Of a stretch of 64,000 nucleotides of DNA, positions 2,408-48,388 are shown piece after piece (within the stretch, counting starts at the first letter, position 1; each line of letters begins with the position of its first letter). The DNA is taken from the NCBI GenBank assembly GCA_000092065.1, contig CP000587.1; one strand, given 5' to 3'. Under the pieces are notes generated by a model. It was given only the letters and a program-made list of their open reading frames with translations. It searched no databases and was not told the origin of the DNA. This DNA comes from Ostreococcus lucimarinus. Its lineage: Eukaryota. The translations under genes and the position numbers were made by a program.

Positions 2408-4267
2408 TTAATCGTACTTGGTGTAAGAATTCGATGGCATGAGGAAGCACTTGGCGAGCGACAACAATCCACCGAACTGTTGCGCGACGTTCAAGCCGAA
2501 GAACATGCGCGACAGCGCCTTGCAAAAGGCAAACGCGTTATCCGCCACGGGGTAGCACAACGGAGGAGGGATATTGGTCTTCATGAGCCATGGAAATCGA
2601 TCGACGACGACGGATTTCGGGACGCAGCAACCGCGGAGTCCTTCAATACCGGCGAAGCGGTCGAAGCCGGATTCCTTGACGCCGCCAAAGGGAAGGGACT
2701 GCGCCATGTACGTCGAGCAAAAGTCATTGATGGAAGTCATACCGGCCTCCAGCTGTGAGCCAAGCTTTTCTGCGCGTCTCGTTGAGCGCGTGAAAACATT
2801 TGATCCGAGACCAAAGTCGCAGTCGTTCGCGAGCGAGATGGATTCCTCGTCGCTCTTTGTCTTGACGATGGCGAGCACGGGACCAAAGACCTCTTCGCGA
2901 GCGATTCGCATATCGTGCGTGATGCCAGAGATCACTGTCGGAGGGTAGAACTGACCACCCTGGGCGCCCAGTTCGATCTTACCACCGACGTGGACGGTCG
3001 CACCACGTGCGACGGCGTCGTCGATGAGAGACTGCACGTACTGCGCTTGCTTTGGCATGCACATCGCCCCACAATCCACGGACGAGCTCAGCGCCCATCC
3101 TTGACGTAACTTCCTCGCCGACTCCAGTACTTTGGCTAAAAACTTGTCGTGAATCTTCTCATGCACGTAGAATCGTTCGGCTCCCGCGCAGTTTTGACCG
3201 CACGATTGAAACGCGCCGCGCAGCGCCATGGGAACGCACTGCTTGAGATCCGCGTCTGCGCAGACGATGAACGGATCTTTACCACCGAGTTCGAGGACGA
3301 CCGGAGTCAAAGTCTTCGCCGCTGCCTCCATAACCTTACGTCCGATGCCAGTGGATCCGACGAAGACTACCTTTTGCACACCGCCAGTGACCAACGCGCT
3401 GCCCGCTTCGCCGTAACCGGTGATGATTTGCACCAAGTCGCGCGGCGCTCCCACGGCATCAAGCGCGGCATCGATGACGCGACCGTAGTACTGCGAGCTC
3501 CAGCTCGCGTACTCACTCACCTTGACGACGAGCGCGTTCCCCGCGAACAAGTTCGCCACCAAAGGATTGAAAACGTTGTGAAACGGATAATTCCACGGCA
3601 CGATTGCGCCCATGACGCCCACCGGATGATACTCCACCCGCGCCTTCTTATAAAACATCATGGCCCCGGTCGATCGCTTCTCGGGTTTCAACCACCGCTC
3701 GCCCTCGTTGCACAGCCATCGAATCTTCTCCAGCGTCACCAGAACCTCCCCGAACGCCGCGTCCACCAACGGCTTACCGCTGTCTCGCGCGCTCACTCGA
3801 CAAATCGTATCCTGCTCTTCCAATATGAACCGCTGTATCACCCGCAGCAGCTTCCGACGCGTCGCGAACGAGCTTTTCGCCCACTCTCTCTGCGCCTTCG
3901 CCGCTTTGGCGATTCTCTCTCGCACTTCCTCCGCCCGCATCGCCGGCAGGTTCGGTCCGAGCGCGCGCATGTTCCCCGGATCGTAGCACGGCACGCTGTC
4001 CGTCGGCCACGCCGCGTTCGCGTCCCACCGCGCGCCCTCCACGCCGCGCGCCTCCTCGTCCGTCAGCGTCACGCGCAGTCTCGGCGCGCGCGTCGCGCGC
4101 AGCGCGCGCAGCACCACCGCCGCGACGAGCGCGACGATCCAAAACCGGCGCTCGTCGACGAGCGCGATCTCGAGCGCGAGCGCCGCCCGCGCGAGCTCGC
4201 GCGCGCGCGGCGGCATCGGGACCGCGTCGAGGACGCTCGCGAGCGCGCGCGTCGCGTCGCGGGACAT
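2408..4267 (-). CDS. Aldehyde dehydrogenase (ALDH22-like, membrane-anchored N-terminus)
   Basis: ALDH catalytic motifs are present: VLELGGKDP, CGQNCAGAERFYV and EEVFGPV. The start is assigned to the internal ATG at 4265-4267 (MSRDATR...) ahead of the hydrophobic segment FWIVALVAAVVL. The longer 977-aa ORF upstream is low-complexity GC artefact. Confidence 0.8.
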   Translation of the reverse strand: MSRDATRALASVLDAVPMPPRARELARAALALEIALVDERRFWIVALVAAVVLRALRATRAPRLRVTLTDEEARGVEGARWDANAAWPTDSVPCYDPGNMRALGPNLPAMRAEEVRERIAKAAKAQREWAKSSFATRRKLLRVIQRFILEEQDTICRVSARDSGKPLVDAAFGEVLVTLEKIRWLCNEGERWLKPEKRSTGAMMFYKKARVEYHPVGVMGAIVPWNYPFHNVFNPLVANLFAGNALVVKVSEYASWSSQYYGRVIDAALDAVGAPRDLVQIITGYGEAGSALVTGGVQKVVFVGSTGIGRKVMEAAAKTLTPVVLELGGKDPFIVCADADLKQCVPMALRGAFQSCGQNCAGAERFYVHEKIHDKFLAKVLESARKLRQGWALSSSVDCGAMCMPKQAQYVQSLIDDAVARGATVHVGGKIELGAQGGQFYPPTVISGITHDMRIAREEVFGPVLAIVKTKSDEESISLANDCDFGLGSNVFTRSTRRAEKLGSQLEAGMTSINDFCSTYMAQSLPFGGVKESGFDRFAGIEGLRGCCVPKSVVVDRFPWLMKTNIPPPLCYPVADNAFAFCKALSRMFFGLNVAQQFGGLLSLAKCFLMPSNSYTKYD

Positions 4268-4536: not shown

Positions 4537-5378
4537 CGGCGCTCGGCGCGCGGCGCGGCGCGAGAGACGACGGCGAACCGCGAGTGTTCTCGTACGACGT
4601 CGTCGAGGCGCACGCGCACGACGCGAACGCGTTCACGCAGGGATTGACGACGTGCGGAGACGGGATCATGTGCGAGAGCACGGGGGCGGTGGGCGGGACG
4701 CCGAGCGAGGTGCGGACGACGACGACGGCGACGGGGGCGAGACGCGCGGGCGCGGACGTGGGCGGCGCGTTCGCGGAGGGCCTGACGCGCGTGGGCGACG
4801 ACGTGCACGTGATTTCTTGGAAGTCTAATCGCGGGTTCACGTACGCGGTGACGGCGGAGGGTGAGGTGACGAAGAAGTGGACGTTTGAGACGCCGTTGTC
4901 GGACGGTTGGGGTTTGACGTCGCTCGACGGCGAGCTGTACGTCACGGACGCGAGCGACAAGTTGCACGTGCTCGACGTCCCCGGACGGGACGGGGCGAAG
5001 TTGAAGTTGAAACGATCGATGACCATCACGGATGACGGCAAAGCCATCAGATTCGCGAACGAATTGGAGACCATAGGAGGCGACGTGTACGCCAATATCC
5101 TCGAGCGGCCGTGCTTGGCGAGAATCGATCCCGCGAACGGCAAAGTGACCGCGTGGGTGAATTTAGATGGATTGAAGCAAGCGTCCCCGAACGATGGCCG
5201 CGGTGATGTGTTGAATGGGATCGCGTACGACGAAAAACTTGATGCCTTGTACGTTACGGGCAAGAATTGGCCGACGATGTTCCGGTTGAAGCTTCGCGAG
5301 GAGCAAGGCGCGAGCCTGGACGCGGTTCGCGCGACGTGCACGCCCCCTTCGAGTCTACCGGGATACGGATACTTGTAG
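4410..5378 (+). CDS. Glutaminyl-peptide cyclotransferase, plant/bacterial beta-propeller type
   Basis: YDVVEAHAHDANAFTQGL matches the plant QC signature (Y-x-V...H...AFTQGL). It is followed by the propeller repeats WKSNRGFTYAV and DGWGLTSLDGELYVTD. Start is taken at the ATG at 4410, before a hydrophobic signal-like segment AVVACALLALA and a 12-Thr linker. The gene is divergent from the ALDH gene. Confidence 0.7.
4501..4537. repeat. (ACG)12 trinucleotide microsatellite encoding poly-Thr inside the glutaminyl cyclase CDS
   Basis: acgacgacg... run seen directly in the sequence. It translates to TTTTTTTTTTTT. Confidence 0.9.
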
Positions 5379-25822: not shown

Positions 25823-26347
25823 CTACTTAGTCGCTAATTCGGCCTCGAGATCCGCGATCGCGCCTTCGATCGCCGCGCATTTCCGCGTCGTCGCGTACCA
25901 CTCGCGCTCGAGCGCGGAAATTTCCTTCGCCGCGCTCTCTTGCTGCAACTTCCGCATCACGTTCAGCTCGTTCACCTCCGTGCGTACGCGCGCCAGCTCC
26001 TCCTCGTACGCCTTCACCGCCGCGTCTCCCCACGCGTTCCTCGCCCGCCACGCCGCCGGCGCGTACTTCAGCGCCAGCTCCAAATTCGCGCGTCTCGTCG
26101 CCTGATGTTCCAACTGCGCGCGCGCGTTTTCGATCGCCTTCTCCCACGCCTCCGCGCTCTCGCGCTCGCTCCGCGGCGGCGGATCGAGCCTGTACCGCAT
26201 CGTGTCCGGAATCACCATCGATCTCCCGCTCGCGACGCGCGCGAGTTCATCCGCGACCATCCTTCCCGCGCGTCGCTCCAGCCCGTCGTCGCCGCTCGGC
26301 GCCAGCGCGTCGAGGCGATCCCTCCCCCTGCTCTTCATCCGTCGCAT
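25823..26347 (-). CDS. BCAS2: Pre-mRNA splicing factor SPF27/BCAS2 homolog
   Basis: DALAPSGDD...AWEKAIENARAQLEHQATRRANLELALKYAPAAW aligns with BCAS2 (DALPY...QLEHQ..R..NLEL). Only the C-terminal 174 codons of the listed 522-aa ORF are taken as real; the rest is GC artefact. Confidence 0.6.
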   Translation of the reverse strand: MRRMKSRGRDRLDALAPSGDDGLERRAGRMVADELARVASGRSMVIPDTMRYRLDPPPRSERESAEAWEKAIENARAQLEHQATRRANLELALKYAPAAWRARNAWGDAAVKAYEEELARVRTEVNELNVMRKLQQESAAKEISALEREWYATTRKCAAIEGAIADLEAELATK

Positions 26348-26645
26348 CTGCGCCCGCGTTCGCGCCGTCAGTCCCTCGATCGCGCGGCGTTCGCATCGCG
26401 TCGCCGCGCACCTCCTCGGCGACGGCTTGGTCGACGCGCGCGCGCCAGTCTCCTCCCGGCGTCGCGTCGACGTACGGCAGCGCGTCCGCGGCCGCGCCCG
26501 ATGCCGTCCACTCGCGCCGCGCGACGCCCTCGAGCGCCGACGCCGGGAGCGCCGGGACGTCGCGCGCGTCGTCGCGCGGCATCGTCGCGGCGCGGCGCGT
26601 CGAGCGGGCGCGCGCGCGTCGGTCGGCGCCACTCGGCGGCGCGGA

Positions 26646-28877
26646 ATGGCGACCGCGGTCGGCGGCGCGCGCGACGCCCTCGCGCGCGCGCTGCGCGAGC
26701 TCGCGAGCGTCGCGCTGGACGAGGACGAGATCGAGTACGTCCTCGACGGCGCGATCGACGTCGACGGGACGTGCGCGCCGAGGGAGGAGTTCGTCGAGTT
26801 CGTCTGGCCCGTCATCGCGCCGTGGGTCGACGACGACGAAGCGCGCGCGCGGACGCTCGCGGGAGACGCGCGCGACGGCGTCGACGCGGCGGAGACGACG
26901 ACGGTGGAAGAAACGCGGCGCGTCGACCGCGCGCCGGTGTGCCTGGGCGAGGGCTGGCGCGAGGGCGTCGAGCGGGAGGACGCGGCGCGAAGGGCGACGG
27001 CGGCGGCGGCGGGCGTCGCGAAAATGTTCGTCGGGAAGGATGGACGCGGCGACGCGGTCGAGTCGAGGGTGGGGATGCGGGACCGGGAGAAAGCGAGGCG
27101 GGCGGGCGAGCGCTTGGCGGCGAGCGCGGCGGATGAACGGCGCGAGATGGTGGCGAATTTGACGGCGGCGCGGGAACGCGCGGCGCGGGCGCGCGTCGAG
27201 GGACGCGCCAGGGCGTTGTCGAACGTCGAGCTCGGGCCTTTCGCGGTGCCGAATCCGGGAGGGGGGGCGGATTTGATCGAAGACGCGAGCGTGACGCTGG
27301 TGCCGGGAAGACGATACGGCCTGATCGGGCGAAACGGTAAGGGAAAGTCGACGCTGTTGAAATTCCTCGCCGCGCGAAGAGTCGAAGGCATCGACGAGTC
27401 GTACAGCGTGCACTACGTCACGCAAGAGGTCGAGCTGACCGCGGAAGAAGAAGATATGCTCCCCGGAGACGTGGTTTTGCGCGCAGACCTGCAGCGGTGG
27501 TTGCTTCTGGAGGAGCAGATGAAATTAGAATCGAGCGAAGACGCGCTCGCGGTGGCGCGTTTGCAAGAGGTCAACGGCATGCTCGACGCCATCGGGTCGG
27601 CGAGCGCTCCCGCGCGCGTCAGTGTGCTGCTGAAAAATCTCGGGTTTTCCGACGCTCTCATCGCGAGGCCGATGAAAGCGCTCAGCGGGGGATGGCGAGT
27701 GCGCACGGCGCTCGCGGCGGCTTTGTTCGCGCAGCCTGACATTCTGTTTCTCGACGAACCGACAAACCATTTGTCGATTTCGGCGGTGATGTTTTTGAGT
27801 CGCGAGTTGTCGACAAATTCCGTGTGGTCGTCCCGAATCATCGTCACCGTTTCGCACGACCGTCACTTTCTTGATGAGGTCACGACGGACTCCATGCACA
27901 TTTCTGGCGCCGCGAAACGGCTTTCATCGCATCGCATGCCGTACAGCGCGTGGGCCAAGAAAAGACGCGAACAGCAGCTCGCGTTGAAGCGACGCGTAGA
28001 ACAGAGGCAAGAAAAAATAGATAAGCTGAAAGAGTTCGCCGGACACGGGTTCAGATACGGCGGAAGCTCGTCGGCGATTAACATGATGAAGAAGAAAGAG
28101 CTCGAGGCGAAGAAGCTCGAGCTCGAGGCGGGAGACGAGGCGAGCCTGATGGCGGATCTCGAGGAAGACGCCGAGCTCGCGCTCAATCTTCAAGCGGGTG
28201 GAGAGCTTCGTCAAAATATCGTTCGCTTCGACGGCGTATCTTTCGCGTACCCGGGTGGCGACGAGCTCTTCGCCGACGTCGACTTGAGCGTGGATTCAAA
28301 GTCACGCGTCGTCTTACTTGGGGAAAACGGCCAAGGGAAGACGACGATGGTAAAAATCATCACGGGCGAGTTGGAGCCCACGAGCGGGTTGGTGACGCGC
28401 GATCGCGGCGCGCGCGTGTGCTTGGTGAACCAGCACCACGCTGAGCAGCTCGCGTACGATAAAACGCCGCTGGCTTTCATGCTCGACGCTTTTCCGGGAG
28501 ATGGCAGTTACAACCACGAACAAAAGCTTCGAAGTCATCTCAGTGGATGCGGCGTTCTCACCGAGTTGCAAAACGTCCCGGCGCTCGCGCTCTCCGGCGG
28601 GCAAAAGTCGCGAGTCGCCATGGCGGCTGTGTCGTTTCAGGCGCCACACTTGATCATCCTCGACGAGCCGACGAACAATTTAGATCTCGAGTCGTGCGAA
28701 GCTTTGGCGGAAGCTATCGAAAATTTCAAAGGAGGCGTCGTGTTGGTGAGTCATGATCAATACTTTGTCGAGCGCGTCGCGAAAGAAGTCGTCGTCATCG
28801 AAAACGGCGCCGTCAAGCGTCTCGAGTCGTTCGCGAGTTACAAAAAGTCAATCGCGAAGAAACTCGCGAACGCGTAG
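26646..28877 (+). CDS. ABC-F family ATPase (two nucleotide-binding domains, no transmembrane domain; GCN20/ABCF-like)
   Basis: Two Walker A motifs (GRNGKGKST and GENGQGKTT) and two LSGG signatures. The start is the internal ATG at 26646, because the ORF upstream overlaps SPF27. Confidence 0.85.
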   Translation: MATAVGGARDALARALRELASVALDEDEIEYVLDGAIDVDGTCAPREEFVEFVWPVIAPWVDDDEARARTLAGDARDGVDAAETTTVEETRRVDRAPVCLGEGWREGVEREDAARRATAAAAGVAKMFVGKDGRGDAVESRVGMRDREKARRAGERLAASAADERREMVANLTAARERAARARVEGRARALSNVELGPFAVPNPGGGADLIEDASVTLVPGRRYGLIGRNGKGKSTLLKFLAARRVEGIDESYSVHYVTQEVELTAEEEDMLPGDVVLRADLQRWLLLEEQMKLESSEDALAVARLQEVNGMLDAIGSASAPARVSVLLKNLGFSDALIARPMKALSGGWRVRTALAAALFAQPDILFLDEPTNHLSISAVMFLSRELSTNSVWSSRIIVTVSHDRHFLDEVTTDSMHISGAAKRLSSHRMPYSAWAKKRREQQLALKRRVEQRQEKIDKLKEFAGHGFRYGGSSSAINMMKKKELEAKKLELEAGDEASLMADLEEDAELALNLQAGGELRQNIVRFDGVSFAYPGGDELFADVDLSVDSKSRVVLLGENGQGKTTMVKIITGELEPTSGLVTRDRGARVCLVNQHHAEQLAYDKTPLAFMLDAFPGDGSYNHEQKLRSHLSGCGVLTELQNVPALALSGGQKSRVAMAAVSFQAPHLIILDEPTNNLDLESCEALAEAIENFKGGVVLVSHDQYFVERVAKEVVVIENGAVKRLESFASYKKSIAKKLANA

Positions 28878-41242: not shown

Positions 41243-41351
41243 GTTGTGTATTGATAGATTGCACCGTTGCGAATCCTTCACACCCCCTCCGCGCCGACGC
41301 AAGTCGACACAATCTCGACCTCGGTGCGAGTCACACAGCGCGCGCACCTCA

Positions 41352-41702
41352 ATGTCCGACCCGCATAAAGCCGTAACTTTTGCCGTGTGGACCCTCGCCC
41401 TGGCAATGACTCACATCTTTTTCCAGCGCAGGCACGCACCCGACAAAGATAAGACTCGTCCGCGCACGCGAACGCAAACCGCAAAGCTTGAGGAGGAGGA
41501 GAGTCGCGCTCGGGACGCGCAGATGCAACAGGTGCTAGACAGCTGGACGTGCCAGCACTGTCAACACGAGAACCGGAGCCTGCGGAGCACGCGCGCGCGA
41601 CGAAGCACTTTGGAATGTTCGAACTGTCGGAACGATTTCATCTTTTGCGTCTCGCCGCGCAAGAGCGCGCACAAGGCTCTGTTGGATGAACGCCCGGTGC
41701 AG
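41352..41702 (+). CDS. Zinc-ribbon + PARP-like ADP-ribosyltransferase protein, exon 1 (hydrophobic segment and W-x-C-x2-C...C-x2-C zinc ribbon)
   Basis: ATG at 41352. The peptide contains WTCQHCQHEN...ECSNC. The exon ends at CAG|GTGCGC in phase 0. Confidence 0.5.
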
Positions 41703-41772
41703 GTGCGCGAGACGAGAAACGGCGACGAGAAACGCGAGACTGACCGGGACGCGCGGGACGATCGATGCACAG
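41703..41772 (+). other. Intron (70 nt) joining two overlapping out-of-frame ORFs
   Basis: Donor CAG|GTGCGC. Branch ACTGACCGG lies 27 nt upstream of the acceptor cacag|TGC. The length is 70 nt, which is 1 mod 3 and exactly explains the frame shift between ORF 41244..41801 and ORF 41686..42252. Confidence 0.5.
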
Positions 41773-42252
41773 TGCCGCGCGCCGTATCGAGTGGGGAATG
41801 ATACGCTGTCGCCACATTTTACCGTGAAATTGAACGAATTCTCTCTGCCTGGAACGTCATTGTACGAACGATTTTACAAGAATGTGAAGAACGCCGATCC
41901 GCAATCCATTCGGCTCGCCTTCCATGGAACATCGTTCGCGGCGGCGAAGCTGATACTGAAAAACGGTATGAGTCCATCACGACGAATCAACACACAAGGC
42001 GACTGGTTTACACTGGACATCAACTATGCGCTCACGAGAAGTATCTGTCGTGAGGACCACAGCGCGCAATGGGGTGGTACACCCAAGGACGAAGAGCCAG
42101 ACGCGTACTCGAAGAGCGTTGTGGTGATCTGCTTCGCCGTCTACATGCCAAAAACGATCTACATCGGGGAACACATCGTCTGCACATGCGAGAAACATAG
42201 TCTTCCGATCTCAATGCTCGAGTTTCCGCGAGAGCCTTACGATCCCGCGTAA
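41773..42252 (+). CDS. Zinc-ribbon + PARP-like ADP-ribosyltransferase protein, exon 2 (catalytic-like domain)
   Basis: AFHGTSFAAAKLILKNGMSPS ... GDWFTLDINYAL ... KSVVVICFAVYMPKTIYIGEHIVCT aligns block-for-block with mono-ART PARP catalytic cores (FHGT / HGF / G-x-aromatic-F / Y / E). Confidence 0.55.
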   Translation, partial: CRAPYRVGNDTLSPHFTVKLNEFSLPGTSLYERFYKNVKNADPQSIRLAFHGTSFAAAKLILKNGMSPSRRINTQGDWFTLDINYALTRSICREDHSAQWGGTPKDEEPDAYSKSVVVICFAVYMPKTIYIGEHIVCTCEKHSLPISMLEFPREPYDPA

Positions 42253-42385: not shown

Positions 42386-44485
42386 TTACGCGGTCGTGGC
42401 AGGTGCCGCATCTTCCGGGGAACCCTCGTCTTCGAAACAGCACGTCAAGCTTCGCGTGGCGCGTTCGCGCGCGAGCACTTCGAGCAGCGCGGTCAGCTTG
42501 TGCTCACCGTGGACCTTGTTATCACGCGTGCGCACGTTCACCGTTTCGTTCGCTTTTTCGCTTTCGCCGCACACCAAGATATAGTTGAACTGATCGAGCT
42601 GCGCCTCGCGAACCTTCTTTTGCATCTTACGATCCGTGACGTCGACTTCCGCGAAATGACCGGCCTTGCGGAGTTGGCGCTTGACCTCGTAGCAGTAGTC
42701 TCTCGAGGCTTCAGAGATCGGCACAATCATGACTTGTTTTGGCGACAACCAATACGGCCACTTACCCGCAAAGTGCTCGGTCAAAATCGCGAACATACGC
42801 TCGACAGAACCGAGGATAGCTCTGTGAATGATGATCGGCCTCACCGACGAGTTGTTTTCGTCGACGTACGACAGGTCAAATCGAATCGGAAGCTGAAAGT
42901 CGAGCTGGACCGTCGCACACTGGAAGCGACGCTTGAGCGCATCGAAGACAGTGATGTCAATCTTCGGACCGTAGAAGGCGCCGTCACCTTCGTTCAGCTT
43001 CCACTCTCTGCCGCTTCGGTCCAACGCAGACTTGAGCGCCGCCTCCGCCTTGTCCCACACCTCCAACTCACCCAAGTATCCCTCTGGACGCGTCGATAGC
43101 TTCATCTCGTACGTGAGACCAAACACTTCGTACACATCATCTAAGAACTGCAAGAAACCGCTCAACTCCTGTTCCATTTGATCCTCACGGCAGAAGATGT
43201 GCGCGTCGTCTTGCTGGAAGCGGCGAACGCGCGTTAAACCGTGAAGCGCACCCGAGAACTCGTTTCGGTGCAGCACACCGAAATCAGCCACACGCATGGG
43301 GAGTTCACGGTACGTTCTGTGTCGATGCGCGAACATGACGCAGTGACCCGGGCAGTTCATCGGCTTCAGACCAAACTCTTCCTTTTCGACGTTGAAGCTG
43401 AACATGTTTTCCTTGTAGTGCGCCGCGTGACCGGACGTCTTCCAGAGGTCAAAGTTGTAAATATTCGGCGTGATGACTTCGTCATACTCGTATTCCCAAT
43501 ACTTTTCTCGAATAAATTGGACCAAGTTGTTGTAGATGCGCGCGCCGTGCTTTTGGAAAAAACACGAGCCCGGGGAGAGATGGTGGAAAAAGAACAGCTC
43601 TTGGTTCAAGCCAATGGTGCGGTGATCGCGTTTCTTCGCTTCTTCGATGCGCGTGGTGTATTCCTTCATGAGTTTGTCGCTCGGGAAAGTCACGGCGTAC
43701 ACGCGCACGAGCGGGTCCTTGGTGACGTCCGCGCGCCAGTGGGCTCGCGAGCACTGGTTCACGCTGACGCTCTTCAACCACGCGGTGTCCGGCAAGTGCG
43801 GACCGCGGCACAGATCCACCATCGGCCCGCAGCGATAGCACGAAATCGTCGCGTCTTCGGGCAAGTTGGAAATCAACTCAATTTTGAACTTGTTCTCTTC
43901 GAACATCTCCAACGCCTCGGCGCGGCTGACGACGATGCGTTGAAATTCTTGTTTTTCTTTGATGATCTTTTCCATGCGCCCCTTGATGATTTCCGTGTCT
44001 TCCGGCGTCAGCGTGCGCTCGCCCAAGTAGCAATCGTAGTAGAAACCCTCCTCGATCGCCGGTCCGATGGTCAAATCCGCCCCGTACTCCAACTCCAACG
44101 CCTCCCCCAAGACGTGCGCGCTCGAGTGCCAATAACACTCCTTCCCCTCTTCGTCGTCGAAAGTAAACAACGCCAGCGCGCAGTCCCCCTCCAACGGTCG
44201 TCGCATGTCCCAAAACTCCCCATCGACCTTCGCCACGAGCGCGCTCTGCGCCAGCTTCTTGTGTATCCCCAACGCGATGTCGAACGGCGTCGTCGCGAAT
44301 CGCGTCCCATCCTTTTGCGCGCCGTCCGGCAGGGTCACTTTAATCCCTTCCCCCCGCGCCTTCGCCTCTTCGATCCGCGTCAGCTCCCGCGCGCGATACT
44401 TATCGAACAAATCGATCCGGTGCGCGTAATACGGCGACTTCTCTCGCGCGTGATCCGCGTTCGTCGGCGTCGGCGCGTCCGCCAT
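42386..44485 (-). CDS. Threonyl-tRNA synthetase
   Basis: Class II aaRS motifs and the ThrRS-specific blocks HRNEFSGALHGLTRVRRFQQDDAHIFC, plus an N-terminal TGS/editing region. 699 aa. Confidence 0.9.
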   Translation of the reverse strand: MADAPTPTNADHAREKSPYYAHRIDLFDKYRARELTRIEEAKARGEGIKVTLPDGAQKDGTRFATTPFDIALGIHKKLAQSALVAKVDGEFWDMRRPLEGDCALALFTFDDEEGKECYWHSSAHVLGEALELEYGADLTIGPAIEEGFYYDCYLGERTLTPEDTEIIKGRMEKIIKEKQEFQRIVVSRAEALEMFEENKFKIELISNLPEDATISCYRCGPMVDLCRGPHLPDTAWLKSVSVNQCSRAHWRADVTKDPLVRVYAVTFPSDKLMKEYTTRIEEAKKRDHRTIGLNQELFFFHHLSPGSCFFQKHGARIYNNLVQFIREKYWEYEYDEVITPNIYNFDLWKTSGHAAHYKENMFSFNVEKEEFGLKPMNCPGHCVMFAHRHRTYRELPMRVADFGVLHRNEFSGALHGLTRVRRFQQDDAHIFCREDQMEQELSGFLQFLDDVYEVFGLTYEMKLSTRPEGYLGELEVWDKAEAALKSALDRSGREWKLNEGDGAFYGPKIDITVFDALKRRFQCATVQLDFQLPIRFDLSYVDENNSSVRPIIIHRAILGSVERMFAILTEHFAGKWPYWLSPKQVMIVPISEASRDYCYEVKRQLRKAGHFAEVDVTDRKMQKKVREAQLDQFNYILVCGESEKANETVNVRTRDNKVHGEHKLTALLEVLARERATRSLTCCFEDEGSPEDAAPATTA

Positions 44486-44822
44486 GGCGTCCCGCTCGAT
44501 CGCCGTCCCGCGCTTCCGCGCGTCGCGTCCCGACGTCGCCGTATCGCGCGCCCGTTCGCTCGCGTTCGGCTCTCAGCGCCTCCGCGTGCCCTCGCGCGCG
44601 GTTCGCGACGCGCGCGACCGTCGCGCGCGTCGTCGTCGCGCTCTGCCGCGGTCGCCTTTCGCGCGCGCGACCCTACGCCCGGGTCGTCTTTTTCGCCCCC
44701 GTTTGGCGACGCGCGCGTCGACCCCCGTTTGGCGACGTCCACCGACCGACGTCGACGCGCCGGCGCGCGCGCGCGCGACGACGCGACGCGCGAGGGACGG
44801 CGCGACTCGAGACGCGCGCGCG

Positions 44823-45980
44823 ATGCGGGCGACGCCGACGACGCACGCGATGGAACGCGCGCGACGCGCGCGCGCGCCGACGCGCGGCGCGGGACGGCGG
44901 ATGATTGCGACGCCCCGACGCCGACGCGCGACGAACGACGACGGCGACGCGACGACGACGACGACGACGACGGCGGCGGAGGCGTCGTACGAGGAGGACG
45001 AGGCGGAACCGCCGCGACGGCGAGGGACGACGACGACGTTTCCGTTGGCGTGCCCGGTGAGTCTGAAGGCGCTGCGCGGCGACGGCGTCGAGCCGACGAG
45101 CGGGCTGAGGTACGAGGAGCGCGAGGGGCGATGGGATCTGACCGTGGGCGCGGCGGAGAACGCGCGGTCGGGGGCGCGGGTCGGGTCGCTCGTGGACCTG
45201 GCGCGCGAGGCGCTGCCGAACGAGTTGAAGGGGTTGCTGCCGACGAGCGGGTACTTTGGGACGGCGACGTTCGAGACGCCGCAGGTGGCGTTCGCGTACG
45301 AGCGAGGGTGGCGCGATAGCTTTAAGCGCGCTGGGTTTCCGGGGCCGGATGAGGAGGCGCGGTTGGCCGTGGACGCGCTCGGGGAGTTCGCGAAGGGCGG
45401 CATCGTCGTCGACGCGTCGTGCGGCAGCGGGTTGTTTACGAGACGGTTTTTGAAGACGTACAAGGGTCGTTCAAAGGCGTACAAGGGCGTGGTGGCGCTC
45501 GACTACTCCGACGCCATGCTGCGACAAGCGAAGCAATACATGGAGGATGAAAACTTACTCGGCGACGCGGACGTGTGCTTCGTGCGCGCGGACATCGCGC
45601 GGTTACCGTTTCCAGAAGGCTCGCTGGACGGCGTGCACGCGGGCGCCGCCATCCACTGCTGGCCGGATGCCAAGACGGGCGTGGCCGAGATCGCGCGCGT
45701 GCTTAAACCAGGCGCGACGTTCTGTGGAACGACGTTCATGAATCCGCAAGTGCCGTTCTTCGACGAGGACCAGCAGGCCATTTTCGACAACGCCGTTCGA
45801 GAATTCTCGGGCACGGTGAACGCCGAGCGCGGGTTCAGATGGTGGTCCAAGAAGGAACTCCGAGACCTGTGCACCGAATGCGGACTCGTCGATTTTAAGT
45901 GCGAGATTCGCAATCAGTTTATCTTTTACAGCGCGAAGAAGCGAACCGTGGACGACGTCGACGCGGTCGAGAAAGCGTAG
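44823..45980 (+). CDS. SAM-dependent methyltransferase of the plastoglobule-type family (CxxC-containing N-terminus, Methyltransf_11 core), organelle-targeted
   Basis: FPLACPVSLKAL precedes the core, as in plastid methyltransferases. VVDASCGSGLFTRRF is SAM motif I. The start is the internal ATG at 44823, because the listed ORF start overlaps the ThrRS start codon. Confidence 0.65.
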   Translation: MRATPTTHAMERARRARAPTRGAGRRMIATPRRRRATNDDGDATTTTTTTAAEASYEEDEAEPPRRRGTTTTFPLACPVSLKALRGDGVEPTSGLRYEEREGRWDLTVGAAENARSGARVGSLVDLAREALPNELKGLLPTSGYFGTATFETPQVAFAYERGWRDSFKRAGFPGPDEEARLAVDALGEFAKGGIVVDASCGSGLFTRRFLKTYKGRSKAYKGVVALDYSDAMLRQAKQYMEDENLLGDADVCFVRADIARLPFPEGSLDGVHAGAAIHCWPDAKTGVAEIARVLKPGATFCGTTFMNPQVPFFDEDQQAIFDNAVREFSGTVNAERGFRWWSKKELRDLCTECGLVDFKCEIRNQFIFYSAKKRTVDDVDAVEKA

Positions 45981-46048: not shown

Positions 46049-47095
46049 TCAAACGAATTCGGCGGTTTCGACTTCCTTCTCGATCAGCGCCACGCACTCG
46101 CCCACACTCGCTCCGCGCGCCATGTAATCCGCGAGCTTCTCCGTCAACCCTAAGTGTCTACGTAACAGACTCGTCGTGTTCAACACCGCCCATCGAACTT
46201 CCGAATCAGACTTTTTCTGCGTAAACGCCAACGCGCGCAGCAATCCGTCGAGTTGTTGTACGTCGCTCAGACCGCCCTCGGCGAATCCAAAAAGGATGTA
46301 TTCCATGCAGATTCCCGCCATGGCGACGCACGCGAACCGGCCGAGCGATGTGGAGGTAATTTTACCCTTTTGTACTTCGCGCTGAAACTCGCCGTCGCAA
46401 AACGCGCAACCCGCTTGAATGTTAAACGCACCGTACGTCTTGAACGCATCCATCGAGCTCAACGTGTAACCTTTAGGAAGAATCCCGATGAGATACGCGG
46501 TGAGAAAGTGCGCCGCTTCGTGTCGACGCAATCGCGTGACGTACTCCTTCGACGTCGATTGCGCGACGGTGTCGAGCGCGAGCGCCGAGACGCCGCCGCC
46601 GAAGGCGATTTGATCGTACGTCGCGCAAAACGCGGCGAAAGCCGCCACTCCTGCGCCTTGCGCGAACGTCGGATGCAAAAAGTACAATCCCGCGACGTAC
46701 GCCACGCCGAGCAATCGCGTGAAATTATCTCGAATTCCCTTAATCGTGCTCTCCGTCGGCGCCAACAACTTCTCCGCCTCGATGTTATTCAACCGCAGTT
46801 CCGCCAACGCATAATCTCGCTTCGGCACATTATGCGCCGCCCCGAACGCTTTCACCACCCCCCTTTGACGCAAGCACATCACCAACTCCACCGCCTCGCG
46901 TTCGGCGCGATCGCTCGCCGTTTTCATCGCCGCCGCGTCGTCGTCGCCGTCGCTCGTCGACGCCCCCGCGCTCTCGCCTCGCATCGCCGTCACCAACCTC
47001 GCGTCCACCGCCTCGAGCGCGTCTCGCAGTCCTCGATCGCACATTCGCTCGATCTCCGCGTCGAACGCTCGCGTCTCGAACCGCTGCGTCGACAT
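46049..47095 (-). CDS. HEXXH-motif protein, putative membrane zinc metalloprotease (family uncertain)
   Basis: HEAAHFLTAYLIGIL sits inside a hydrophobic segment, and LDG lies about 85 residues downstream. The protein has several hydrophobic helices. Only the C-terminal 348 codons of the listed 763-aa ORF are taken. The start could lie further upstream (up to about 47227). Confidence 0.5.
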   Translation of the reverse strand: MSTQRFETRAFDAEIERMCDRGLRDALEAVDARLVTAMRGESAGASTSDGDDDAAAMKTASDRAEREAVELVMCLRQRGVVKAFGAAHNVPKRDYALAELRLNNIEAEKLLAPTESTIKGIRDNFTRLLGVAYVAGLYFLHPTFAQGAGVAAFAAFCATYDQIAFGGGVSALALDTVAQSTSKEYVTRLRRHEAAHFLTAYLIGILPKGYTLSSMDAFKTYGAFNIQAGCAFCDGEFQREVQKGKITSTSLGRFACVAMAGICMEYILFGFAEGGLSDVQQLDGLLRALAFTQKKSDSEVRWAVLNTTSLLRRHLGLTEKLADYMARGASVGECVALIEKEVETAEFV

Positions 47096-47419
47096 CTCCT
47101 CGTCGTTCACCGCGCGTCGACGCCGCGATCGTTCGACACCATCGCGCCGCGACGTCTTTTTCACCACCGCGCGCCCCCGCCCGCGCCGCGCCGCCGCGCC
47201 CGCGTCGAGCGTCACCGCGCGCATCGTCTCCCGTCGCGCGCGTCGCGTCGAGTCGTCGCGCGCGCGCGCGAGTGCGGCGATGCGTCGAGTAATCTTTGTG
47301 GATAACGACCGATGCGTCGCGTTCCCCGCACTCACGCGCGCGCGCACGCTCGCGAACCGCTCGCGAATCGCTCGACGCGCGTAAAAACCTACACCGCGCG
47401 ACTCGCGCGATCGACGACG

Positions 47420-48316
47420 ATGATGGCGCAGCAGGGCGTCGCGATGACGCAGAAGTCGCACTTTGCGCGATCGACGCGGGCGTCGATGCGATCGGGCGCG
47501 CGCGCGACGCGCGGGGCGCGCGCGGTCGCGCCGCGCGCGGCGGGCGCGGATGATTTCACGCCGGAAAAGTTCATGGCGAAGTACGACGAGATTTCGTACA
47601 AGATTCCGCCGCTGTTGACGGCGGCGGCGGTGCCCGTCGTGGGGTTGTCGCTGCTGTGCAAGACGCTCACGGGACACGGCTTGCCGGGGACGGCGCTCGG
47701 CTCGATCGAGGGGATCTCTTGGCTCGTGCTCCCGCTCGGGGCGAAGTCGTTCTGGCCGAAGGCGCAAGACATCGCGCGATTGAAGGATAAGACGCCGGAG
47801 AACGTGCTTAAGATTTTGCAGACGGAGGGACGCGCGTACGGCGGATTCGGCGAAGATAGCCGAGGAAAGAACGCGACGGAACGCCTTAATTCGATCGCGA
47901 GTGAGGTCGATCCGAACTCGCCGCTCGGTCAGCAAATGGCTGATATCGCTAGGCAAAAGGCTGAGCGCGAGAAGGAAACGCCCGAGCAACAGGCTGAACG
48001 GGAACGACTTCGCGCGGAACTCGCGGCGTCGGCGCTCGGCATGGCGAACGCCAAGACGGCTGAATTCGAAGCGGAGGCGGACACCAAGGGTAAAGACGGG
48101 TTGTTGGCGAAGCCGGTGACGGAAACGCTCAAGGACAGCATGACTGTTGAAAACTACGACGTCGACGTGACGAAGTATGACGACAAGGCGCTCGGATCGA
48201 AGCTCAACTTGTCCTCCACGGATATCGAAAAGGGCGTGCCGAAGAACAACAAGGGCGATGCCTGGCGCGAACAGTACCGCACGGAAGAAAACGCCGAAGG
48301 TGCGAAGGAAGATTAA
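47420..48316 (+). CDS. Hypothetical chloroplast-targeted membrane protein with a K/E-rich coiled-coil C-terminus
   Basis: Transit-peptide-like MMAQQGVAMTQKSHFARSTRASMRSGARATRGARAVAPRAAG. Two hydrophobic segments follow, then an acidic/basic low-complexity tail. Start at the tandem ATGATG at 47420. Confidence 0.5.
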   Translation: MMAQQGVAMTQKSHFARSTRASMRSGARATRGARAVAPRAAGADDFTPEKFMAKYDEISYKIPPLLTAAAVPVVGLSLLCKTLTGHGLPGTALGSIEGISWLVLPLGAKSFWPKAQDIARLKDKTPENVLKILQTEGRAYGGFGEDSRGKNATERLNSIASEVDPNSPLGQQMADIARQKAEREKETPEQQAERERLRAELAASALGMANAKTAEFEAEADTKGKDGLLAKPVTETLKDSMTVENYDVDVTKYDDKALGSKLNLSSTDIEKGVPKNNKGDAWREQYRTEENAEGAKED

Positions 48317-48388
48317 CGCGAAATTCTCGAGATTGATCATATGACTCTTGCTCCAACGCTTCGATAAACCACGACGACAAGCAATTTT

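Follow-up and report, generated by a model that had tools for sequence, protein, structure and literature searches.

A small two-exon gene of Ostreococcus lucimarinus predicted to join a zinc ribbon to a strongly diverged PARP-like domain

Ostreococcus lucimarinus and Micromonas pusilla have been listed among the species without an identifiable PARP gene (Citarelli et al. 2010, PMC2964712, Table 1), and some green algae have been said to lack PARPs (Perina et al. 2014, PMC4245714). The question of whether such genes are truly missing is raised by a locus at positions 41352–42252 (plus strand) of a 64,000-nucleotide stretch of O. lucimarinus DNA (NCBI GenBank assembly GCA_000092065.1, contig CP000587.1; hereafter the window, with a GC content of 61%), at which a first-pass annotation, made from the sequence alone, had proposed a two-exon gene for a zinc ribbon fused to a PARP-like mono-ADP-ribosyltransferase domain. 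Is this a single gene, does its product contain a PARP fold, and is the protein likely to have kept enzymatic activity? By comparison with orthologous loci, 41352–42252 is established as one nuclear two-exon protein-coding gene, and its C-terminal domain is assigned, through profiles and structure prediction, to the PARP family as a strongly diverged member.

Two open reading frames (ORFs) overlap here in different frames of the plus strand, namely 41244..41801, which comprises 185 aa from a TTG and has its first ATG at 41352, and 41686..42252, which comprises 188 aa. Excision of positions 41703–41772 leaves 351 + 480 nt with a stop-free translation of 276 aa, and both splice junctions fall at codon boundaries (...RPVQ / CRAPYRVGND...). 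The proposed reconciliation of the two ORFs by a 70-nt GTGCGC...ACTGAC...CAG intron is thus exact, and the predicted product of about 276 residues is the one obtained. The segment has the properties of a GT-AG intron, including its ends, a branch-site motif, a position that is kept between species along with diverged length and sequence, and restoration of the frame upon removal.

Metagenome loci from other species carry the same intron position. In L001, L003 and L006, a GT..AG intron of 69, 85 and 140 nt, respectively, interrupts the gene at the same codon boundary, with protein conservation halting at [RK]PVQ and restarting at [CI]R[AT]PYRVGND, and with (G)ACTGAC located 20–30 nt before the 3' end of the intron. 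Because the intron lengths differ, the phase relation of the two ORFs varies from species to species. The ACTGAC motif was found in all four orthologous introns as well as in an intron of the BCAS2 gene of the window (25823–27425, minus strand), where 64 nt (26348–26411, GTGCGC...GACTGAC...GCAG) join the overlapping ORFs 26247..27425 and 25823..27391 into a 231-aa protein, and this spliced product matches Pfam BCAS2/SPF27 (PF05700) across the junction with an E-value of 2.9e-49. The intron signature is the genome's own, and the BCAS2 intron serves as a control; the pattern GTGCG-N20-50-ACTGAC-N10-40-CAG matched the window four times, at three loci, against 0.57 matches expected.

In two distant positional orthologues, P0039 and P0148, which lie on contigs of 67% GC next to genes for threonyl-tRNA synthetase (ThrRS) and a methyltransferase, the intron is absent; a single uninterrupted ORF spans the zinc ribbon and the C-terminal domain, and the sequence around the junction (...RPLQ-x3-PFR...) is preserved. 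The joining of the two halves is thereby confirmed, and the predicted fusion of a zinc ribbon with a PARP-like domain is shown to be conserved. In addition, the gene is under purifying selection: comparison of the four species with the intron shows saturation at synonymous sites (proportion of synonymous differences, pS, 0.71–0.80) and a corresponding nonsynonymous proportion (pN) of 0.20–0.30. It is the agreement of orthologue introns, intron-free orthologues, purifying selection and the BCAS2 control on which the gene model rests.

Protein databases hold the two halves apart. The exact spliced protein of 276 aa was not found in a collection of 15 billion proteins, which contains only the two unspliced ORFs, both as 'hypothetical protein', the first as 149 aa on 174 contigs and the second as 188 aa on 370 contigs; in the 149-aa cluster, one entry bears the label 'transcription elongation factor Elf1', evidently on account of the zinc ribbon. 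A search of 5.8 billion proteins returned no more than eight clusters; none has a name, their sources are marine metagenomes or NCBI, and they are split into N-terminal-half ORFs, C-terminal-half ORFs and a single 291-aa protein (P0001) that contains both. Since the L001 intron (5274–5342) is in frame and stop-free over its 69 nt, P0001 can be understood as a read-through product with 23 extra residues. Intron retention would not truncate the protein in that species.

The C-terminal domain falls below the limits of direct recognition. Against the Pfam PARP family (PF00644), the window protein yielded E-values of 0.08–0.17 and 11.8–12.9 bits vs a gathering threshold of 26.7 bits; five orthologues all gave weak matches, the best with an E-value of 8e-4. 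P0148 scored 14.4 bits and P0037 15.1 bits, and P0039 gave no match. Searches of solved structures with the single sequence or with a four-sequence profile returned nothing at E<=10. Statistically significant homology to PF00644 members was reached via the orthologue profile, built from four orthologous exon-2 sequences and run against 1.84 billion representative proteins, which retrieved 112 proteins at E<=1e-3, 15 of them at E<=1e-10. Among 91 relatives that were scanned, 77 match PF00644 at E<=1e-3 (best 4.7e-36), and several bridging proteins exceed the 26.7-bit cut-off (P0046 with 73, P0056 with 53.7, P0058 with 40.7 and P0055 with 36.6 bits; 36–125 bits for bridging proteins overall). 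When the window domain and 47 relatives were aligned (48 sequences) and compared with PDB, PARP12, PARP10, ZAP, PARP15, PARP14 and PARP16 were matched with E-values of ~1e-8 to 2e-6, followed in rank by Tpt1, tankyrases and PARP1. The suggestion of a catalytic core of the PARP10/14 type is upheld by these matches to PARP12/10/15/14, and the profile search recommended with it gave significant PARP matches with both the four-sequence and the 48-sequence profile. As judged from these profiles, the domain is a strongly diverged member of the PARP family (H-Y-E clade), the nearest relatives of which are the mono-transferases PARP10/12/14/15.

Structure prediction leads to the same family. An AlphaFold2 model computed with the 48-sequence alignment reached a mean predicted local distance difference test score (pLDDT) of 90.3 and a predicted template modelling score (pTM) of 0.85, and Foldseek placed PARP14, PARP15, PARP10, PARP12 and tankyrase-2 at the top of its list (E 2e-6, probability 1.0). 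The modelled fold is that of the PARP/diphtheria-toxin-type ADP-ribosyltransferases, and the second check proposed at the outset, prediction of the structure, also places the domain in the PARP fold. The sole part of the model with low confidence comprises exon-2 residues ~97–114 (42061–42114, mean pLDDT 62), a loop between the pocket helix and the next strand, the length and sequence of which vary among orthologues.

Conservation is concentrated around the putative NAD+ pocket. In 11 sequences from three clades, 34–75% identical to the window domain, 25 residues are invariant, and 16 of these lie in three pocket segments: H51-G52-T53, G76-D-W-F-T-x-D-x-x-Y-A-x-x-R-x-I-x-R93 and G132-[E/D]-H134 (exon-2 numbering, to which 117 is added for the full-length numbering). 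This invariance holds between clades that are 34–39% identical, and the pocket motifs appear to be the most conserved part of the protein. The first segment contains the His-Gly-[Ser/Thr] signature of the H-Y-E clade; across the 48 aligned sequences, its His and Gly are invariant and its Thr is nearly so. The alignments agree with the reading of FHGT (167–170) as the His-Gly-Thr motif and of KNGM as the counterpart of the 'GF/GL' motif. They agree likewise on GDWF (193–196) in place of GxYF: the stacking Tyr of G-x-x-Y-F is replaced by an invariant Trp195, which aligns with the Tyr of G-E-Y-F in the relatives and of G-I-Y-F-A in tankyrase-2, and this residue is aromatic, so that stacking may be kept.

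Further along the pocket helix, the domain departs from the canonical pattern. Relatives that pass the Pfam threshold keep Tyr, Ser and Tyr at PARP1-like spacing (0, +8, +11); in the window protein, the column of the nicotinamide-binding Ser (+8) is occupied by Ala203, and that of the second stacking Tyr (+11) by Arg206. Tyr202, which had been proposed as the second aromatic residue, stands at +7, immediately ahead of the Ser column and a single helical turn away from Arg206, which follows it, and this assignment has to be given up, as the column in question holds the invariant Arg206 instead. For the third catalytic residue, the model has a strand at exon-2 residues 134–137 with G132-E133 just before it. 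Counting back 11 residues from the conserved Pro145 equates H134 with E1138 of tankyrase-2 and I987 of PARP10, and puts E133 one position earlier; if the turn that follows had an indel of one residue, E133 would come to lie at the catalytic position instead. The acid is Asp in the GC-rich clade (IGDHVV). Members of the wider family vary in the acid column and have a hydrophobic residue in the column after it, like the H-Y-I enzymes of the PARP10 type. Of the H-(W)-E triad in the first-pass annotation, the His and the Trp stand, and IGEHIV is present at 248–253, with the third residue being either Glu250 or His251; the triad is best written as H-W-(E or H), and instead of H-W-E it may be H-W-H, with the acid next to the second His. 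The coordinates of these features and of the gene parts are collected in Table 1.

Table 1. Positions of the gene parts, domains and motifs at 41352–42252, numbered from the first letter of the window.
Feature	Position	Strand	Remarks
Exon 1, coding part	41352..41702	+	117 codons, Met1-Gln117; ends at the [RK]PVQ codon boundary conserved in four species
Spliceosomal intron, 70 nt, GTGCGC...ACTGAC...CAG	41703..41772	+	Removal joins the frames exactly
Putative branch site ACTGAC	41739..41744	+	Presumptive branch A 29 nt upstream of the 3' splice site
Exon 2, coding part	41773..42252	+	159 codons and TAA stop; 67–75% identical to four orthologues
Hydrophobic segment, residues 7–25, AVTFAVWTLALAMTHIFFQ, followed by a basic stretch	41370..41426	+	Kyte-Doolittle 19-residue mean 1.49
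Four-cysteine zinc ribbon, W65-x-C67-x2-C70-x18-C89-x2-C92	41544..41627	+	Trp and four Cys invariant in 9 orthologues, two clades
Predicted PARP-fold (ADP-ribosyltransferase-like) domain	41785..42231	+	Residues ~122–270 (exon-2 residues 5–153)
His168-Gly169-Thr170 (exon-2 H51-G52-T53), putative strand-1 NAD+-binding motif	41923..41931	+	Aligns with HGT/HGS of PARP10, PARP12 and tankyrase-2
Gly193-Asp194-Trp195-Phe196 (exon-2 G76-D77-W78-F79)	41998..42009	+	Invariant in the subfamily; Trp in the stacking-Tyr column
Tyr202-Ala203-Leu-Thr-Arg206 (exon-2 85–89)	42025..42039	+	Y85, A86 and R89 invariant in the subfamily; ungapped alignment with relatives and tankyrase-2
Gly249-Glu250-His251 (exon-2 G132-E133-H134)	42166..42174	+	Front edge of the strand bearing the catalytic Glu in PARPs; G-[E/D]-H invariant in the subfamily

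The N-terminal half contributes two further elements. The hydrophobic segment that had been noticed at the N-terminus is present, with Kyte-Doolittle means of 1.62–1.72 in three orthologues, and its 'M-x-HIFF' core is conserved in the clade of the window and absent from the GC-rich orthologues. The C4 zinc ribbon is well supported by the pattern of conserved residues; it matches Pfam zinc-ribbon families below threshold only, and in comparisons with PDB profiles the TAB2 NZF and RBM5 RanBP2-type fingers came out without significance (E 0.4–0.5). The RanBP2-like spacing attributed to it applies in part: W-x-C-x2-C...C-x2-C is present, and the first knuckle (W-x-C-x2-C-x3-N) resembles that of RanBP2/NZF fingers (PF00641), as does the C-x2-C of the second, but the loop between the knuckles is too long. 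A bona fide RanBP2/NZF finger was rejected on the grounds that the loop after the Asn has 14 residues rather than 6, that the Asn is not conserved, being His in the GC-rich orthologues, and that there is no Pfam match.

What such a protein might do can be framed from the order of its parts, which would run from the hydrophobic segment through a basic linker and the zinc ribbon to the PARP-fold domain. We lean, by a modest degree, towards an active enzyme, the domain of which would bind NAD+ and transfer single ADP-ribose units, with the zinc ribbon picking the target and the N-terminus tethering the protein to a membrane. NAD+ would be held through His-Gly-Thr and the Trp that replaces the stacking Tyr, and the invariant Glu/Asp-His pair at the site of the catalytic Glu would be used to transfer a single ADP-ribose; transfer of single units is suggested by the lack of a helical regulatory domain and by the mono-transferase nature of the nearest relatives. 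The target, which could be a protein or a nucleic acid, would be chosen by the zinc ribbon. The hydrophobic N-terminus would probably serve as a membrane anchor, and the remaining domains would face the cytosol because basic residues follow the hydrophobic segment. With Ala in place of the Ser and Arg in place of the second Tyr, the nicotinamide pocket has been remodelled, and therefore the chemistry or the ligand may differ from those of canonical PARPs.

A more specific proposal is that of an active transferase with a novel site, His...Trp...(Glu/Asp)-His, with Arg for the second Tyr and Ala for the Ser, which would represent a new PARP subfamily confined to Mamiellophyceae-type picoalgae and directed by the zinc ribbon, its target (e.g. 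nucleic-acid phosphate) or co-substrate being possibly non-canonical; taken with all its parts, this proposal seems rather unlikely. Retained function as such is favoured by the location of 16 of the 25 cross-clade invariant residues in the pocket motifs and by the retention of His-Gly, since inactive PARP-like domains without the His are exemplified by PARP9 (Q-Y-T) and TASOR (L-Y-Q) (PMC7955679, Table 1).

Several observations weigh against an active, membrane-tethered PARP. No member of the subfamily reaches the Pfam PARP threshold (12–15 bits), and a subfamily-only profile of 11 sequences reaches E-values of only 0.011–0.08 in PDB (Tpt1, PARP10), with a weak hhalign match of the same 11-sequence alignment to tankyrase-2 (probability 8%). 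The model owes its confidence to an alignment made up mostly of members of the wider PARP-like family, and with the four orthologues alone the pLDDT is 40. The replacement of the first Tyr by Trp, of the Ser by Ala and of the second Tyr by Arg at the nicotinamide site is compatible with a loss of NAD+ binding. The register of the catalytic residue is a further point, as global hhalign alignments to tankyrase-2, PARP1 and PARP10 were inconsistent in the C-terminal half. As a membrane helix, finally, the hydrophobic N-terminus would be a borderline case, and the GC-rich orthologues lack it.

The alternative that survives best, and which we hold to be a real though lesser possibility, is a pseudo-enzyme, in which the PARP fold is kept and both NAD+ binding and ADP-ribose transfer are lost, and which would act as a binding or scaffold module targeted by the zinc ribbon, comparable to the PARP-like domains of ZAP/PARP13, plant RCD1/SRO and TASOR. 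It would account for the invariance of Ala and Arg in the columns of the Ser and the second Tyr, for the Trp in that of the first Tyr, and for the failure of all members to reach the Pfam PARP threshold; salt bridges among the invariant residues Arg206, Arg210 and Asp199 could, moreover, close the cleft. However, His-Gly-Thr and the acid-His pair are invariant across clades 34–39% identical, unlike the Q-Y-T and L-Y-Q of the inactive PARP9 and TASOR domains cited above, and the pocket motifs are the best conserved part of the protein, the opposite of what a decayed active site would be expected to show.

A special case of the active transferase is one that would modify nucleic-acid phosphate in the manner of Tpt1/KptA, with the basic linker and the zinc ribbon binding RNA or DNA. 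Nucleic-acid phosphate ADP-ribosylation has been reported for some mono-PARPs. Such a role would be consistent with weak matches to Tpt1 (PF01885; E 0.29 for the window protein and 0.016 for the best orthologue), with the solved Tpt1 chains that top the subfamily-only profile (E 0.011), with a linker and a loop that are both strongly basic (RPRTRTQTAK, RSTRARR), with the pocket helix carrying Arg206/Arg210 as invariant residues, and with the finger's weak resemblance to that of RBM5, which is of the RanBP2 type and binds RNA (E 0.5). It is nevertheless improbable, as the Tpt1 matches all remain below threshold and are limited to the common HGT...G-x-x-P-x-x-R segment, and as the N-terminal RNA-binding lobe of Tpt1 has no counterpart here. 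Membership of the Tpt1/KptA family itself (PF01885) was rejected on these same two grounds.

That the ORFs are unjoined, being either two small genes, one for a zinc-ribbon protein of 149 aa and one for a product of 188 aa from the ATG at 41686, or one gene and a chance ORF, has the public protein sets, which contain the unspliced ORFs only, and the in-frame, stop-free and thus retainable L001 intron on its side, but it is very improbable indeed and was ruled out, since conservation ends exactly at the splice sites in four species with introns of varying length and phase, the second-frame residues between the ATG at 41686 and 41772 are not conserved, both halves, with an intact ...RP[LV]Q-x3-P[FY]R... 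junction, are encoded by a single ORF in the orthologues that have no intron, and the public sets resemble prokaryote-style ORF calls, which are unable to splice.

Having set these alternatives against a putatively active, diverged PARP, we can compare the algal protein with known systems. The mono-ADP-ribosylating group PARP10/12/14/15 (ARTD, PF00644) provides its best profile matches among solved structures, and shares with it His-Gly-Thr, G-x-x-aromatic-Phe, the C-terminal 'Q/S-L-P...hydrophobic strand' motif and the lack of a helical regulatory domain. In contrast to this group, the algal domain has Trp, Ala and Arg for the stacking Tyr, the Ser and the second Tyr, scores below the Pfam threshold, and carries a Glu/Asp-His pair where those PARPs have Ile or Leu; it has an insert of ~20 residues after the pocket helix, which is variable, of low confidence in the model and longer in the GC-rich clade, and where those PARPs have macro, WWE or CCCH domains as partners, it has a zinc ribbon and a hydrophobic N-terminus. 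With E-values of 1e-13 to 1e-4, the nearest relatives that can be detected belong to a wider, unnamed eukaryotic family of PARP-domain proteins (P0046, P0055, P0056), with the consensus NPHSxPG..LYxRF..FHGT..GLDPxRR.GQAxGxGEYF..SxxYC..MLVFAVL..HQLPLxVxTF. Both have the same domain boundaries and the N-terminal 'N-x-x-S-x-P-G..LY.RF' lead-in in common, whereas the wider family passes Pfam PARP, retains the two Tyr and the Ser between them with the spacing seen in PARP1, and has a hydrophobic catalytic position (H-Y-I type) without the conserved acid-His pair; some of its members carry UBC, UBA, RING and Deltex-C domains of the ubiquitin system.

Other PARP-like proteins resemble the algal protein in single respects. 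ZAP/PARP13, plant RCD1/SRO and TASOR are inactive PARP-like domains; unlike these, the algal protein keeps His-Gly-Thr and a conserved acid at the putative catalytic site, and it has other partner domains. PARP16 is a tail-anchored mono-PARP of the endoplasmic reticulum, and the PARP6/8 clade has a cysteine-rich region before the catalytic domain. The putative algal anchor differs from that of PARP16 in being N-terminal and of borderline hydrophobicity, and the algal cysteine pattern, CX2CX18CX2C, differs from that of PARP6/8.

Literature searches found no description of this zinc-ribbon/PARP-like family. The apparent loss of PARPs in this algal group may be, at least in part, a failure of detection, because a gene with a predicted PARP fold is present that is too diverged for Pfam and is split in two by ORF callers; its position next to the ThrRS gene is conserved across the group, and it is maintained by purifying selection. 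It would count as a new PARP subfamily rather than an ordinary member, because it misses the Pfam score and three classical active-site residues. As such it amounts to a natural experiment on the PARP active site, in which three nicotinamide-site residues have been replaced and His-Gly and the acid-His pair have stayed invariant, and the small size (276 aa) and easy expression of the protein make the choice between active enzyme and pseudo-enzyme directly testable. Otherwise, it adds a further lineage-specific branch to a superfamily that is very large and well known, and is not a new kind of system.

The neighbourhood common to the window and the orthologue contigs consists of genes for RabGAP-TBC, fucokinase/GDP-fucose pyrophosphorylase, the zinc-ribbon/PARP protein, ThrRS (on the opposite strand) and a methyltransferase. 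The neighbours are unrelated eukaryotic housekeeping genes and offer no functional clue. The GC content of the window, its gene density, the marine metagenomic relatives and the Micromonas-like sister loci of 67% GC all fit a compact, GC-rich genome of the Mamiellophyceae. A scan of viral contigs found no relatives of the zinc-ribbon/PARP-like protein, which argues against a recent origin from giant viruses.

Among the more distant loci, L010:6001-6888 and L012:6001-6966, on contigs with a GC content of 0.67, are intron-free positional orthologues from probably Micromonas-like organisms. In these, a Lys/Arg-rich N-terminus replaces the hydrophobic segment, Asp replaces Glu in G-[E/D]-H, and the insert after the pocket helix is far longer (~40–90 residues); upstream, the fucokinase gene is replaced by a JmjC/cupin gene, OSCP and Tam41. 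A third lineage is represented by P0037 (L014:976-1857, contig GC 0.43), which has a GDWF-type domain with IGEHTV; its N-terminal half is acidic, poor in Cys and devoid of the zinc ribbon. The gene directly upstream is a RabGAP-TBC gene, a hint that some synteny remains.

Elsewhere in the 64-kb window, no tRNA genes were found. A further match to the intron pattern at 2915–2971 (plus strand, GTGCGT...ACTGAC...CAG) lies opposite a 977-aa minus-strand ORF and is probably due to chance. At E<=1e-5, no Pfam family matches a 763-aa ORF at 46049–48340 (minus strand). Many long ORFs lie antisense to others or overlap them, for example that of 692 aa at 43241–45319 (plus strand) opposite the ThrRS gene; GC-rich DNA typically contains such ORFs, which do not count as evidence of genes.

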